This document shows positions 3,060 to 47,865 of a stretch of DNA of 64,000 bases, one piece after another. Under the pieces are notes generated by a model. The model was not told the origin of the DNA, did no database searches, and was given only the letters and a program-made list of their open reading frames with translations. The translations under genes were made by a program, and so were the position numbers. Source of the stretch: a virus (lineage: Duplodnaviria; Heunggongvirae; Uroviricota; Caudoviricetes). Every line of letters starts with the position of its first letter. Position 1 is the stretch's first letter. The stretch lies in IMG/VR virus record IMGVR_UViG_2875713109_000001. One strand, written 5' to 3'.

Positions 3060-3581
3060 TTATTTCTTTTCTGGACAAGTAGCATTTGGCTGAATTCGAG
3101 TTTCATTATCTTTAGTTGAAATAAGCACAGCAAGCCCCGTTGTAAACTGGCATGCTTTACCAACTTGAGTTGAAGTGAACACCTTAGTTCCTTCTTTATA
3201 AGTCAGTGAAACACCTTCAACAATTGTTTTATCACTAACCAAAGAACCAGCCGCTGCACCAAGAGCCGCACCACCAGTACCGCCAGCTACAGCACCCAGT
3301 GTCGATGTGCCTTTAACATTATAACCGGCAACGCCCCCAGCAACAGCTCCCAGTACCGCACCAAATGTCTGTGCCGCTTCTTTATTAGCTTTATTATCAA
3401 CTTTCACTTTAGCTGGAAGCACAGAGATAATATTGACTGTCTTTGTTTCCTGCTTCGAATTCAATTGAGCGGTATCATAAACATCGGCAGCATAATCAGC
3501 ACCGCTAGATTGACACCCAGAAAGAAGAATTGCAGATACAACAAGAGCGCATAAAGTATACTTTTTAGACATAAGAATCAT
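3060..3581 (-). CDS. lipoprotein with glycine-zipper segment
   Basis: Lipobox LLSGC after hydrophobic N-terminus (alternative ATG at 3572); G/A-rich GxxxG repeats (GAVLGAVAGGVAG...). Confidence 0.55.
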   Translation of the reverse strand: MILMSKKYTLCALVVSAILLSGCQSSGADYAADVYDTAQLNSKQETKTVNIISVLPAKVKVDNKANKEAAQTFGAVLGAVAGGVAGYNVKGTSTLGAVAGGTGGAALGAAAGSLVSDKTIVEGVSLTYKEGTKVFTSTQVGKACQFTTGLAVLISTKDNETRIQPNATCPEKK

Positions 3582-3862
3582 CCCAGAAAAACAAAAACCG
3601 GCGAGAAGTTACCACGAGAACGGAAAGTAAACAAGAATACTCCCATTGACTTATATCAAATAATCAACTTTTTATAAGCTATCCCTAACTTATTGTGTAT
3701 AGCTGAAAAGTCAGAGATAAGTTCACCATCTGCATTATTTCTTAAGTTAATAGTTTATTGCTAACTTAATTTATGTATCGACTATTGATATCCATCTTAA
3801 AGTAACAATATCCCTCTGCATTATTTTTCATCACAAATAATACATCTATTGCACTACGCTCA

Positions 3863-3879
3863 CCTGCTCTAATAAATTT
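3863..3879 (+). promoter_or_regulatory. C1 repressor operator-like site upstream of immI
   Basis: cctgctctaataaattt, 15/17 match to ATTGCTCTAATAAATTT motif that recurs at more than 15 places in the window. Confidence 0.6.
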
Positions 3880-4066
3880 GTATTTTTAAGTCGCGAATGC
3901 TATCTTTTCGCATCATATTGACCTTTTAATCGTTCAGGCTTATAGTTTCGCCGTCGTAGCAAATTCTGCGACCAGGTTTGACAGCCTGAATGATTGTGCG
4001 GACAACCGCAGATTTCCGATATTGCGGTATTTTTGTGTCCGTTAAACCGCGTTACGCCCAAATTAT

Positions 4067-44133: not shown

Positions 44134-44774
44134 CTACTCTAACGACAGCATACTTACAGCAATTGGTATTTTTTGCAGGCGAGGCTACTTGTCATCCTGA
44201 CGCAAACTATTTATTGGAATTTGAGAGGTTAGCGTCACCCGGTATCGTTCTGGAACTGGCCCAACAGGTGCTGGCCTTAAGACAAAAAGAGCAACATGAA
44301 AGTAATACGTGTAGATTGAACTTTGAGCAGTGGCTGGAACAGCAACGCGGAAAAATCGATGTGGACTGTGGTTGTGTGTCTACTGAAACATTCATGCACT
44401 GGCTGCGGGTAGCTTACGAGGCTGGCAACTATCCGGATATTCCGGATAGTTCGGTGCCAGGGCCAGGAAAGGGCGTCACCGGTGAACGTATCCGCATTAA
44501 GCCGCATGTTTATCGCGAACTGGTTAACCGTCTCCACGATACAGCGATCAAGTGTGCTGGCACCCAGCAATTACGAGAAAGAATTAGCCGTGTTTTGGGC
44601 GACGTTATTAAGCCAGACCATCATAAACAAGCCGAGAAAAGTGGCCTGGAAAGGTGTCACCTTGAGGCGGCATTAAACATTAACCCGGGGCATACGCTTG
44701 GCATTATTGATGCACTATTGGTTCATAAGATGGCCAGGGCTTTATTGCCGCTGGTAGGGGGCAATGACAACTAG
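44115..44774 (+). CDS. hypothetical protein (219 aa)
   Basis: ORF overlapping upstream gene end. Confidence 0.4.
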   Translation: MAQKEMTTLTTAYLQQLVFFAGEATCHPDANYLLEFERLASPGIVLELAQQVLALRQKEQHESNTCRLNFEQWLEQQRGKIDVDCGCVSTETFMHWLRVAYEAGNYPDIPDSSVPGPGKGVTGERIRIKPHVYRELVNRLHDTAIKCAGTQQLRERISRVLGDVIKPDHHKQAEKSGLERCHLEAALNINPGHTLGIIDALLVHKMARALLPLVGGNDN

Positions 44775-44858
44775 GAAAAAATCGCATTACTGGTGGCAAA
44801 GCCATAACTACTGATACAATATTTCTAGGTTAAAGATCTGGCATTAGGTAGAGATAGC

Positions 44859-45323
44859 ATGTTTCTTCATATCAATCCCGATTGGGCATCAGCTATTGCG
44901 GCATTTGGGTCAGCAATAGCTGCTTTTATTAGTTTGCGCACAAGTAAAAATCTTGGATTATTCGATAAGGAAAAATTTTATAGTGAAGCATTGATAAACT
45001 TTGCTGATAGGGCAAATAAAATAGCAACAGGAAAAGCTGGATCAGACTGGGATGTTAATGACGCAAGTAATATAATTCTTTCACTAAATGCCGCAAAAGA
45101 AACTATTGAAAGTGCGCCAAAACCTATTCGAGAGAAACTAAAACAATATTACAAACATAATCTTTGCCATGAGATCATAACTGAATTAGAGGCTCACTCT
45201 CCCCCAGATTCAGTAATTGTAAGAGAACCATCAGAGTATGAAGGCAAGATCATGGGATTGTGGGATGAGATTAAAATATTTCTGGGTTATACAGTGGTAT
45301 CAGAAGCAGACCTTGAAGATTAA
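44859..45323 (+). CDS. membrane-anchored protein (154 aa), AT-rich gene
   Basis: N-terminal hydrophobic segment WASAIAAFGSAIAAFISL; low GC relative to neighbours. Confidence 0.4.
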   Translation: MFLHINPDWASAIAAFGSAIAAFISLRTSKNLGLFDKEKFYSEALINFADRANKIATGKAGSDWDVNDASNIILSLNAAKETIESAPKPIREKLKQYYKHNLCHEIITELEAHSPPDSVIVREPSEYEGKIMGLWDEIKIFLGYTVVSEADLED

Positions 45324-45430
45324 AGTTTGGTGTGACCACATCATTTCATCAATGATGCCCGAAGTGGGGAGTTTGACGATTGTCCGGTGATTTAAGCTGC
45401 AAAGTGCTGGTGCTTTATGCTTGTGAAGTT

Positions 45431-45467: not shown

Positions 45468-45689
45468 ATGCAATCCATTAACTTCCGTACCGCACGCGGC
45501 AACCTTAGCGAAGTGCTCAATAATGTTGAAGCAGGGGAAGAGGTTGAAATCACCCGCAGAGGCCGTGAGCCAGCAGTAATTGTCAGCAAGGCTACTTTTG
45601 AAACCTACAAAAAAGCGGCGCTGGATGCTGAATTTGCATCCCTGTTTGACACCCTGGACTCCACCAACAAGGAACTGGTTAACCGATAA
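45468..45689 (+). CDS. phd: Phd antitoxin
   Basis: 73 aa [39 protein letters not shown]... matches recalled P1 Phd. Confidence 0.9.
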
Positions 45690-46069
45690 TGAGGCATATA
45701 TCACCGGAAGAACTTATTGCGCTTCATGATGCGAATATAAACCGCTACGGCGGCCTGCCGGGAATGTCAGATCCGGGTAGGGCTGAGGCCATTATCGGGA
45801 GAGTTCAGGCCAGAGTTGCCTACGAAGAGATCACCGACCTTTTCGAAGTCTCCGCCACCTACCTGGTGGCTACAGCGAGAGGGCATATATTCAATGATGC
45901 CAATAAGCGTACCGCGCTAAACAGTGCGCTGCTATTTCTACGCCGTAACGGGGTGCAGGTATTTGATTCACCAGAACTGGCAGACCTTACCGTAGGGGCT
46001 GCGACCGGAGAGATATCTGTATCTACTGTCGCCGCCACGTTACGTAGATTGTATGGTTCTGCGGAGTAG
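45689..46069 (+). CDS. doc: Doc toxin (Fic-fold kinase)
   Basis: 126 aa, ATG overlaps phd stop; [19 protein letters not shown] core motif. Confidence 0.9.
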
Positions 46070-46073
46070 ATTA

Positions 46074-46253
46074 ATGGCACGTAAATACAACAAATTGTCC
46101 CGTAGAGCGTTAAAGATGCTTCTTGATGGCGTGAGTCGCCGCGAGGTAAAGCAATACCTGGTTGGTAAGCAAATTGGTGCCAGGACCGCTATTGCTGTGT
46201 TATGCCGTCAGGAAATGGTTGTGCTTAAACAGAAAATGCCGGGCAGCAGATAA
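46074..46253 (+). CDS. small basic protein (59 aa)
   Basis: ATG overlapping doc stop; K/R-rich. Confidence 0.3.
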   Translation: MARKYNKLSRRALKMLLDGVSRREVKQYLVGKQIGARTAIAVLCRQEMVVLKQKMPGSR

Positions 46254-46280
46254 AGCCAAATCAGTGATGAAAGGTGTGAT

Positions 46281-47324
46281 GTGAAAGCCGTAATTACTCC
46301 CTTTGTACAAAAAGAGCTTGGCGTCGCCACATTCAAAGTGGATCAGGAAGTCAGAAAGCTGGTGGAGGCTGGCCGTAAATTTATTATGGAGCCGGTGCCG
46401 CGTGAGTTAATCGAGCACATGGACGACGGCCTCGTTGTTTCCGAGCAAACTATGGCAACAAATGAGGCGTTGCAGCCGTTTTTTAACAGCGATGAACTGT
46501 TTCGCCGTATTGGTGGAATTGACGCGCTGGTGGCGTGGTTGCGCAGGAAAGAGGGGCAATGCCAGGCCGCAGATCGTAGCTGGTGTGACAACCATATTGT
46601 CCACGCTGAACGAGACAACAGCGCGGTGTTGTTGTGCTGGCATCACGATAATCATTACCGGATGCGTGGTTTTAATGAGCTGAAAGAAACGCTGCATAAT
46701 AATCGCGTTAACTGGATACTGGATGTCGCTCGTCAGGAAATGGGCCTTTCTGATGGTCATGATTTAAGTATTCAGGAGCTGTGCTGGTGGGCTTTCATGC
46801 GCAACATGATCCACCTCATGCCGGAAGAAGTCTGCCGTATATCAATAAATAAGGTGAGGGCTGCAACGCAGGATAGCGGACCTCTGAAAGAGGCGGATAT
46901 TCGCCCGTATGACGATCGCGCTACAGCATATGTTCAGATGATGGAAGAACGCGCCGCGCCGATGCGTGCAAAAGTATGCCCTGTGGATGTTGACTCCGAC
47001 CCTGGCATGGCGCATTTCAAAATACCAAAACTGCAATCGCTAAAATTACCTGAGTACATGGACTTTGTTGCTTCCCGTCCATGCTGTGGGTGTGGAGCTG
47101 CGGGAGCTGGCGCTCACATTACGCCTTATATCGTTCGTCATAGTCGATTATGCGCGCATGACATTTACGCAATTCCTCTGTGCCAGTCATGCCAGCGTGA
47201 TATTGAGCGTGACCGCGATAATTGGGAGAAGACGCACGGCAGGCTGGCGATGCATCAACGATTGTTCTTTGATTACGCGCTTGGAGTCGGCGTTATCACA
47301 AGTCACTCGTCGAGCGTTAGATAA
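46281..47324 (+). CDS. Cys/His-rich protein (347 aa)
   Basis: GTG start with AAGGTG SD; clusters CWHHDNHY and PCCGCG...CAHD...PLCQSC suggest metal-binding or HNH-like module. Confidence 0.45.
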
Positions 47325-47325
47325 A

Positions 47326-47342
47326 ATTGCTCTAATGTATTG
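47326..47342 (+). promoter_or_regulatory. C1 operator-like site upstream of lpa
   Basis: attgctctaatgtattg. Confidence 0.55.
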
Positions 47343-47412
47343 CTATTTCTTTAATCGAGGGTATTATATTCGTCGTTGATTAGTTGACATGGGCTAATCA
47401 GTAGGTGACAGG

Positions 47413-47865
47413 ATGTTACTTAACTGGCAGGGACGCCACTTCATGGAAATAAATCACTCACGAATTACATCGTATGAGATTGCGGATTACATGATCCGCA
47501 CTAAATCTCTTCTATCAGCGAAAGAACTCGCAGCAATCCTTGAAAAGGAATACCCGCATCTGGATGTCGATAAGCGCGATGTTTATCTGCGCTTAAAGGC
47601 TATCGCTGTGTCTAAGTATTCGTCTGTTTTGATTGATGACAGTACACGCCCACGTAGATTTCAGATCCACTCTCTGAATCCTGAATTCTTTCGCCGCAGC
47701 CGCGCTCCGCGCCGGTTTGATGAAAAACTCCAGAACGAACTCTATATGACGCAGGACGAAAAGGAACGCCGGGAGCACCAGCCTTGGGTAATGGCGCGTC
47801 AACTTTTCAATAAGGTGGCCCGTCAGCACCGTCATTACGGTAATGCCACATCCGCACGTATCTGA
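47413..47865 (+). CDS. lpa: late promoter activator Lpa (tentative)
   Basis: 150-aa ORF immediately upstream of pacA and downstream of a C1 operator, as lpa is in P1; AGGTGA SD. Confidence 0.5.
   Translation: MLLNWQGRHFMEINHSRITSYEIADYMIRTKSLLSAKELAAILEKEYPHLDVDKRDVYLRLKAIAVSKYSSVLIDDSTRPRRFQIHSLNPEFFRRSRAPRRFDEKLQNELYMTQDEKERREHQPWVMARQLFNKVARQHRHYGNATSARI

Follow-up and report, generated by a model that had tools for sequence, protein, structure and literature searches.

The post-doc genes pdcA and pdcB of a P1-type phage-plasmid: PdcB is a YdfU/DUF968-family protein with a degenerate HNH-type active site

Among the described proteins of temperate phages that come closest to the one studied here are YdfU of the Qin prophage of Escherichia coli and YbcO of the DLP12 prophage (PDB 3g27), named members of His-Me finger group 7, which comprises the families DUF968 and DUF1364 and for which a role in recombination has been hypothesised (PMC5714182). 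Two further phage proteins of HNH type are RecA-dependent: Ref of phage P1, an active endonuclease (PDB 3plw) whose HNH site is intact and whose N-terminal region is basic and lacks structure (PMC4330346), and Gp16 of the staphylococcal phage phiNM1, a nickase that needs both the zinc ligands C148, C181 and H184 and the nuclease-centre residues H157, H185 and H189 (PMC12817073). Here we compare with them the product of pdcB, the larger of two open reading frames (ORFs) that occupy positions 46,074 to 47,324, between doc and lpa, of a 64,000-nucleotide stretch of viral DNA (IMG/VR record IMGVR_UViG_2875713109_000001; "the window" refers to this whole stretch). An original prediction, made from the sequence alone, had described the two ORFs as a small basic protein and a Cys/His-rich protein of 347 amino acids with two metal-binding-like clusters.

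The window is a P1-type phage-plasmid: its region at about 45.4-47.9 kb shows 97.2% DNA identity to phage P1 and 98.2% to the P1-like phage vB_EcoM-673R5, and the P1 gene order phd, doc, pdcA, pdcB, lpa, pacA, pacB is kept. Both ORFs were found where they had been predicted, on the + strand and co-oriented with phd-doc, and they are the already catalogued P1 genes pdcA and pdcB ("post-doc"), names absent from the original prediction. The P1 genome record lists both products as "unknown protein function" and the P1 literature describes them as of unknown function and non-essential, so that the earlier statement that the function is unassigned holds for that literature.

The pdcB gene starts with GTG at 46281, preceded 6 nt upstream by AAAGG, the good Shine-Dalgarno sequence already noticed in the prediction, and ends with TAA at 47324. 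Its product contains 12 Cys (3.5%) and 16 His (4.6%), several of them within the motifs CWHHDNHY (residues 119-126), PCCGCG (267-272), CAHD (291-294) and PLCQSC (299-304). Pfam DUF968 (PF06147) matched residues 161-337 over profile positions 1-171 (E 1.5e-49; 168.8 bits against a cut-off of 27.8), and PHROG 96, labelled "HNH endonuclease", matched the full length (E 4.5e-128). With word-indexed searches and one exhaustive profile search, 791 representatives were retrieved from the library at E <= 1e-3; roughly 40 of these are full-length sequences collinear with PdcB, and the collinear alignments to homologues at 25-37% identity extend over 98% of the query. YdfU and the other DUF968 proteins of lambdoid prophages are themselves collinear with PdcB over the full length at 25-33% identity, sharing with it a size of 330-350 amino acids, the N-module pattern CQ...C/H...CW-x-H/C, the ELCWW helix and the C-terminal CxxC...HD...PLC; the P1 genome annotation itself cites 25% identity of PdcB to P76162 (YdfU).

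The original prediction was to fall if homologues lacked a conserved Cys/His pattern. Column conservation was counted over 79 full-length family representatives. In the N-module, C94 is present in 77/79 and C119 in 78/79, position 102 is C or H in 77/79 and position 122 is H or C in all 79; in the C-module, C268 is present in 79/79, C271 in 68/79 and C301 in 73/79, while position 304 is C or H in 63/79 and rarely E or D. D294 is found in every representative and H293 in 71 of them, and the invariant columns of the family are C94, Q95, C119, N141 and the residues E166, L167, C168, W169 and W170 of the ELCWW helix. Judged from this alignment, the pattern is not a product of chance, and the prediction stands on this point.

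No match was found in a PDB sequence search with PdcB alone; with the family profile YbcO was the sole solved-structure match (E 0.13), the alignment placing PHH onto the catalytic A-H of YbcO and C-x-x-C-H onto C-S-A-C-H. Searches of NCBIfam and PADLOC returned nothing relevant for this locus, which gives no support for a known defence system. Fusions of the N-terminal half of the family to tail-fibre, tail-tip, capsid, portal or Q proteins (P0086, P0093, P0095, P0103, P0132, P0135 and P0069) were rejected as functional hints; rather than real architectures, these are in all likelihood chimeras of defective prophages, created by deletion or in assembly.

An AlphaFold2 model of PdcB, built on 42 sequences, is of moderate overall confidence (mean predicted local distance difference test score 72.5), with residues 60-190 and 260-335 well predicted and the N-terminal 57 residues poorly so. 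It contains two beta-beta-alpha units, at residues 106-111/114-119/120-129 and 280-284/297-301/302-319. The first has C94, C102, C119 and H122 as putative zinc ligands, strands at 106-111 and 114-119, and a helix at 120-129 that carries CWHHDNHY; a helical linker connects it to the second, the region just before the finger being predicted as helical or disordered. The best structural matches of the N-terminal module are HNH domains as well. The structural comparison listed IscB (5.4), ScoMcrA (4.9), EcoKMcrA (4.3), Cap5, Ref and Hpy99I (4.0 each), the HNH protein of GVE2 (3.9), the HNH domain of ZRANB3 (3.4) and YbcO (3.3). In a Foldseek search of the PDB nothing reached significance (best E = 1), HNH domains nevertheless taking the top of its list. 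The suggestion that the two clusters may form an HNH-like or zinc-ribbon module is supported, the C-terminal one lying in DUF968, a His-Me finger family. An internal duplication was considered and rejected, as the hhalign comparison of the N- and C-module profiles gave a sensible topology at an insignificant probability of 1.3%; a common origin of the two modules is accordingly not claimed.

The model thus contains the beta-beta-alpha-metal fold of catalytically competent HNH proteins, but the residues that would make it cut are gone. In the canonical members of lambdoid prophages the C-terminal motif reads C-x-x-C-G-x-x-A-D-D-P-H-H-[IL]-I-G-H-G-Q-G-G-M-G-T-K-A-H-D-L-F-x-I-P-L-C-R-x-x-H-x-x-L-H, which we take to be of the colicin-E9 type: strand 1 ends in a pair of His, and the helix carries H-x3-H. 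The first His of the pair (position 283; 62 of 63 canonical sequences) is Y or F in the 14 members of the P1 clade (Y283 here), and the second, the general base at position 284 (63/63), is I, L or M in 14/14 (I284 here). In the helix, the His at position 305 (62/63) is replaced by Q in 14/14 and that at position 309 (62/63) by A, E, S, V or R (E309 here), leaving Q305 and E309 where a metal-binding His or Asn would be expected; Lys at position 291 (62/63) has become C in 14/14, and the Gly-rich loop is deleted throughout the clade. In short, YdfU-type proteins retain PHH, the GHGQGGMGTK loop and H-x3-H, and PdcB has lost all three. By contrast, the putative zinc ligands C268, C271, C301 and C304, the set CxxC ... 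C-x-x-[C/H] of the family, are kept in 14/14 P1-clade sequences. The two nearest relatives of the clade, a metagenomic protein (P0020) and orf98 of phage D6, each about 37% identical, have a likewise degenerate active site. In this phage-plasmid lineage as a whole the pair of His, the two helix His and the loop have disappeared, and the predicted zinc ligands, H293-D294 and the R-D...W-E...G segment that follows are retained under strong purifying selection. Tyr283 was considered as an alternative catalytic residue and ruled out, since Phe occupies this position in some members of the clade.

The N-module has no catalytic His in any family member: its strand 1 ends without His throughout (E-R in P1, R/K and a variable residue elsewhere), and H121 and H125 of CWHHDNH are not conserved outside the P1 clade. 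One protein of the canonical branch (P0088) has independently lost both helix His (C-K-S-H-A-K-E-L-R-N) and some of the Gly-rich loop, whereas its strand still ends in Q-H; the active site has thus decayed more than once in the YdfU/DUF968 family. The label "HNH endonuclease" given by RefSeq and PHROGs is, as far as these substitutions tell, probably wrong for PdcB; it appears to have been carried over from related proteins that possess the catalytic residues missing in PdcB.

YbcO (DUF1364) is a single domain of 96 amino acids with catalytic His and CxxCH intact, whereas PdcB has an additional N-terminal half and a degenerate site. Ref is only 9% identical to PdcB over the aligned part and, unlike the active Ref, PdcB has no catalytic His and a different N-terminal half. 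Gp16, an accessory early gene product of a temperate phage and a member of a sister family, matches PF16784 (HNHc_6) over its full length, and its HNH part passes the DUF968 cut-off, with the motif order of the DUF968 family (CxxC, His, Gly-rich loop, C-x-x-H-H-x3-H). By motif position, C148/C181/H184 of Gp16 correspond to C271/C301/C304 of PdcB, which are kept, and H157/H185/H189 to I284/Q305/E309, where the His are lost; as the Gp16-family hidden Markov model alignment is offset by one residue near H157, the equivalence of H157 and I284 rests on motif reasoning. While Gp16 has a NinB/Orf-like N-terminal domain and all catalytic His, PdcB has an HNH-like zinc module in place of that domain; it gave no Pfam match to NinB at E <= 1 and is not of the Orf/NinB-HNH fusion type described for Gram-positive DUF968/HNHc_6 proteins (PMC4118853, PMC12817073).

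Despite this loss PdcB is not a decaying protein. For pdcB, the ratio of non-synonymous to synonymous substitution rates (dN/dS) comes to 0.13 in the comparison with P1 and to about 0.10 in that with a P1-like element of Klebsiella (67% protein identity), and a value of about 0.1 indicates a maintained, functional protein. In a survey of 77 P1-like phage-plasmids pdcB was among the 21 most conserved genes and was used as a marker for the polymerase chain reaction (PMC9603915). Knock-down of pdcB by CRISPR interference gave an efficiency of plating of 0.68 and was scored as non-essential (PMC10695390), and a pdcB::kan phage has been constructed that forms stable lysogens (PMC10067587, PMC10999674).

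PdcB is a YdfU/DUF968 protein with two predicted zinc modules, in which the N-terminal 57 residues are followed by an HNH-like module, the helical linker and a C-terminal His-Me finger; it most likely folds around two structural zinc ions. Such a protein would have given up HNH-type cleavage and would work as a binder of DNA, of a DNA structure or of a partner protein, in a role inherited from the recombination-associated nucleases of temperate phages and as an accessory function dispensable in the laboratory. We consider it rather likely that PdcB is a zinc-stabilised, non-catalytic pseudo-nuclease that binds DNA or a partner. Several points weigh against this view. The inactivity of PdcB is read from its sequence, and the zinc ligands are predicted. 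His-Me fingers tolerate variant sites, such as N for the last H or D-H for H-H, and H293-D294 together with Q305, none of which varies within the P1 clade, might conceivably make up another metal site. Moreover, PdcB is mildly acidic (isoelectric point 6.35), only its C-terminal domain being basic (8.3), which is not as expected of a strong general DNA binder.

The main alternative is that PdcB is a working HNH endonuclease with a non-canonical set of residues (for example H293/D294 with Q305 and E309, or residues of the N-terminal HHDNH helix), engaged, like Ref or phiNM1 Gp16, in recombination or DNA processing. PdcB belongs to a nuclease family and has an HNH fold, it is a functional protein by the strong purifying selection on it, some related proteins do cut DNA (Gp16, PMC12817073; Ref), and within the P1 clade not only H293, D294 and Q305 but also H121-H122-D123-N124-H125 are invariant. 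However, all four motif His, present in 62-63 of 63 sequences elsewhere, are replaced, the general base by an aliphatic residue (I/L/M); position 309 varies even inside the P1 clade (A/E/S/V/R), the Gly-rich loop is deleted, and the N-module has E-R at the end of strand 1 and His residues (H121, H125) that are not conserved outside the clade. In Gp16, Ala substitution of the helix His weakens the nuclease phenotype. We therefore regard an active PdcB nuclease as unlikely; a published DNA-cleavage assay of PdcB was not found in the searchable literature. The nuclease activity implied by the original prediction, which had proposed nuclease assays, is not supported, since other residues stand in PdcB where the family motif has its general base, the His beside it and the two His of the helix.

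A more specific version of the pseudo-nuclease reading would see in the phage-plasmid lineage (PdcB, D6 orf98 and relatives) a conserved tandem HNH pseudo-nuclease that descends from a recombination nuclease and now binds without cutting, its target being, for instance, branched DNA, DNA covered by RecA, or a nuclease of HNH type from the host or a rival. Separately, PdcA might be a third, so far unnoticed component travelling with phd-doc. We give these two ideas, taken jointly, a slim chance.

Gene neighbourhood bears on whether PdcB has anything to do with Phd and Doc, as had been suggested. In the Klebsiella P1-like element (L002), homology to the window begins exactly at the pdcB start codon and runs through lpa, and the genes upstream are unrelated, encoding a DUF6884 protein and an acidic protein of 85 amino acids. 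In a metagenomic contig (L009) the 37%-identical homologue is immediately followed by a homologue of lpa, with no phd-doc nearby. In phage D6, phd-doc-pdcA is present at 96% identity, homology stops just past the pdcA stop, and the pdcB homologue (orf98, 37.5%) lies 5 kb away among early genes, next to neither phd-doc nor lpa. Conjugative and mobilizable IncF plasmids (L007, L008) carry phd-doc-pdcA together with the start of pdcB, which an insertion sequence fragment truncates after ~92 codons; this cassette is a captured piece of P1. In one of them (L007; NZ_AP022327, an IncF plasmid of E. coli O25:H4) the fragment, at 3116-3985, lies beside a type I restriction-modification locus. Hence pdcB goes with the lpa-pac block and pdcA with the phd-doc cassette, and looking for effects of PdcB on Doc toxicity or Phd stability, as initially proposed, has little support. 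Overall, the structural guess of the original prediction was right in kind, and what it implied about function, nuclease action and a tie to Doc, is probably wrong.

The coordinates of the locus are collected in Table 1. Just upstream of phd, the stretch 44756-45400 is without a close match in any P1-type phage record; the P1 genes hot-lxr-humD are absent and in their place lies an ORF of 154 amino acids (44859-45323), whose product has an N-terminal hydrophobic helix and no Pfam family. This stretch belongs to what has been described as the "highly variable region" of phage-plasmids of the P1 type (PMC9603915).

Table 1. Features of the phd-lpa region of the window. pN/pS, ratio of non-synonymous to synonymous polymorphism.
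Feature	Position	Strand	Basis and remarks
phd, antitoxin	45468..45689	+	Pfam PhdYeFM_antitox, E 1.4e-12; P1 annotation; pN/pS 0.09; first of the co-oriented gene string
doc, toxin	45689..46069	+	Pfam Fic/DOC, E 1.9e-9; P1 annotation; pN/pS 0.10
pdcA	46074..46253	+	Very basic ORF of 59 amino acids; PHROG 3345 match, E 6e-42
pdcB	46281..47324	+	347 amino acids, YdfU/DUF968 family; 96% amino acid identity to P1 PdcB
PdcB residues 58-195, well-predicted N-terminal domain, zinc module 1 (putative)	46452..46865	+	
PdcB residues 255-340, C-terminal His-Me (HNH) finger	47043..47300	+	
C1 operator Olpa and promoter Plpa	47326..47367	+	P1 annotation transferred (offset 43899); marks the end of the pdcB unit
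lpa, late-promoter activator	47413..47865	+	Pfam BPP1_LPA, E 3.1e-57; conserved downstream neighbour of pdcB

A terminator and promoter scan, whose counts were not above those of shuffled sequence, detected no intrinsic terminator between doc and lpa and no hairpin after doc or after pdcA, and recovered only the known promoter Plpa (TTGCTA-16-TATTAT at 47340-47367). The spacing is tight, with 4 nt from the doc stop to the pdcA start and 27 nt from pdcA to pdcB, and the simplest inference is that transcription from Pphd would continue past phd-doc into pdcA-pdcB, as the last part of one transcript. Olpa begins 2 nt past the pdcB stop and overlaps the -35 element of Plpa, so that any read-through from pdcB would enter the repressor-controlled promoter of the late activator.

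The small gene is of a different nature. PdcA carries 15 Lys and Arg against 3 Asp and Glu (isoelectric point 11.3), confirming the description as basic, and was predicted by eye to be helical. It is probably translated, likely by coupling to doc, given a good Shine-Dalgarno sequence (GGAG, 7 nt upstream of the ATG at 46074) and a start so close to the doc stop. Records differ on this start: P1, P7 and RCS47 use an ATG 21 nt earlier (equivalent to 46053), giving 66 amino acids and an overlap with doc, whereas the 46074 start agrees with the genes called by RefSeq on IncF plasmids, with the annotation of SJ46 and with the profile of PHROG 3345, a family of unknown function whose 59 positions align with PdcA 1-59 from end to end. 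No Pfam match was obtained for PdcA, nor any Rfam model at a permissive threshold. A helix-turn-helix was considered and set aside, the NCBIfam match to a transposase N-terminal helix-turn-helix domain reaching only E 0.14, a lead at most.

All detectable homologues of PdcA are at least 73% identical and named PdcA, with no distant homologues, and they are limited to the phd-doc-pdcA cassette in Escherichia, Salmonella and close relatives. The gene turns up in 21 phage records and in 1161 plasmids, of which 515 are conjugative or mobilizable IncF-type replicons. It is weakly constrained: its pN/pS is 0.47, against 0.09 for phd and 0.10 for doc, and its variable sites at codon positions 1, 2 and 3 (3, 7 and 7) show no excess at the third, unlike those of phd (2, 1 and 10) and doc (2, 3 and 10). 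The protein collection falls into 98 clusters at 90% identity, with many length variants. That pdcA has no protein function at all is possible, though we rather doubt it.

With this in hand, a further explanation can be weighed, namely that pdcA, pdcB or both form a working part of the phd-doc addiction module, affecting Doc toxicity, Phd stability or autoregulation, an idea that concerns mainly pdcA. Co-orientation, the short gaps and the lack of a detected terminator fit it, as does the occurrence of phd-doc-pdcA together in D6 and many IncF plasmids. The pdcB homologues of the Klebsiella type (67%), of L009 (37%) and of D6 (37.5%) do not adjoin phd-doc, however, so that for pdcB co-occurrence with the module fails, and D6 conversely has phd-doc-pdcA with no adjoining pdcB. 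As for pdcA, the IncF case is a P1-derived fragment that still keeps the cut pdcB, and pdcA may thus be a passenger; its weak constraint and many length variants also speak against a part in the module. In the literature, phd and doc alone suffice for addiction. We consider a role in the addiction module very unlikely.

Genes of the YdfU type lie immediately or closely upstream of a late regulator in very different phages, before Q in two cases (L005, 6001-7897; L010, 3544-5749) and before Lpa in two others (L002, 4001-5582; L009, 376-1940). The canonical genes are found in a nin-like region near Q, with RusA, KilA-N, Dam or DUF1064 genes as neighbours, in contrast to pdcB, which lies upstream of lpa in a plasmid prophage. 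This shared position before the late regulator may reflect common descent of the gene block or a functional tie. The idea that PdcB is a zinc-finger regulator of the switch from early to late expression, with Lpa or its promoter as its target or partner by analogy with the genes upstream of Q, draws on the place of pdcB directly before lpa in P1, the Klebsiella element and L009, on the canonical members found just before Q in lambdoid prophages of Yersinia and of metagenomes, and on the lpa operator adjoining the pdcB stop, but it is highly improbable, as the D6 homologue does not adjoin lpa, lpa is essential for plaques while knock-down or disruption of pdcB has little effect, the nin-like position is equally explained by shared ancestry of the gene block, and no DNA-binding motif was found beyond the HNH-type modules.

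These are known genes and a known family, and the only new point, the degenerate active site of the phage-plasmid lineage, is a modest refinement of annotation. It concerns P1, which serves as a model phage and as the prototype of the phage-plasmids by which resistance genes are spread, and it calls for caution in nuclease assays, or in models of defence or recombination, that treat pdcB as a nuclease. The division of the two ORFs between distinct mobile modules redirects the experiments first proposed on Doc and Phd. Should the phage-plasmid lineage indeed have turned a recombination nuclease into a non-cutting binder, this protein may give plasmid prophages a benefit in maintenance, anti-recombination or counter-defence that plaque and lysogeny assays do not see.

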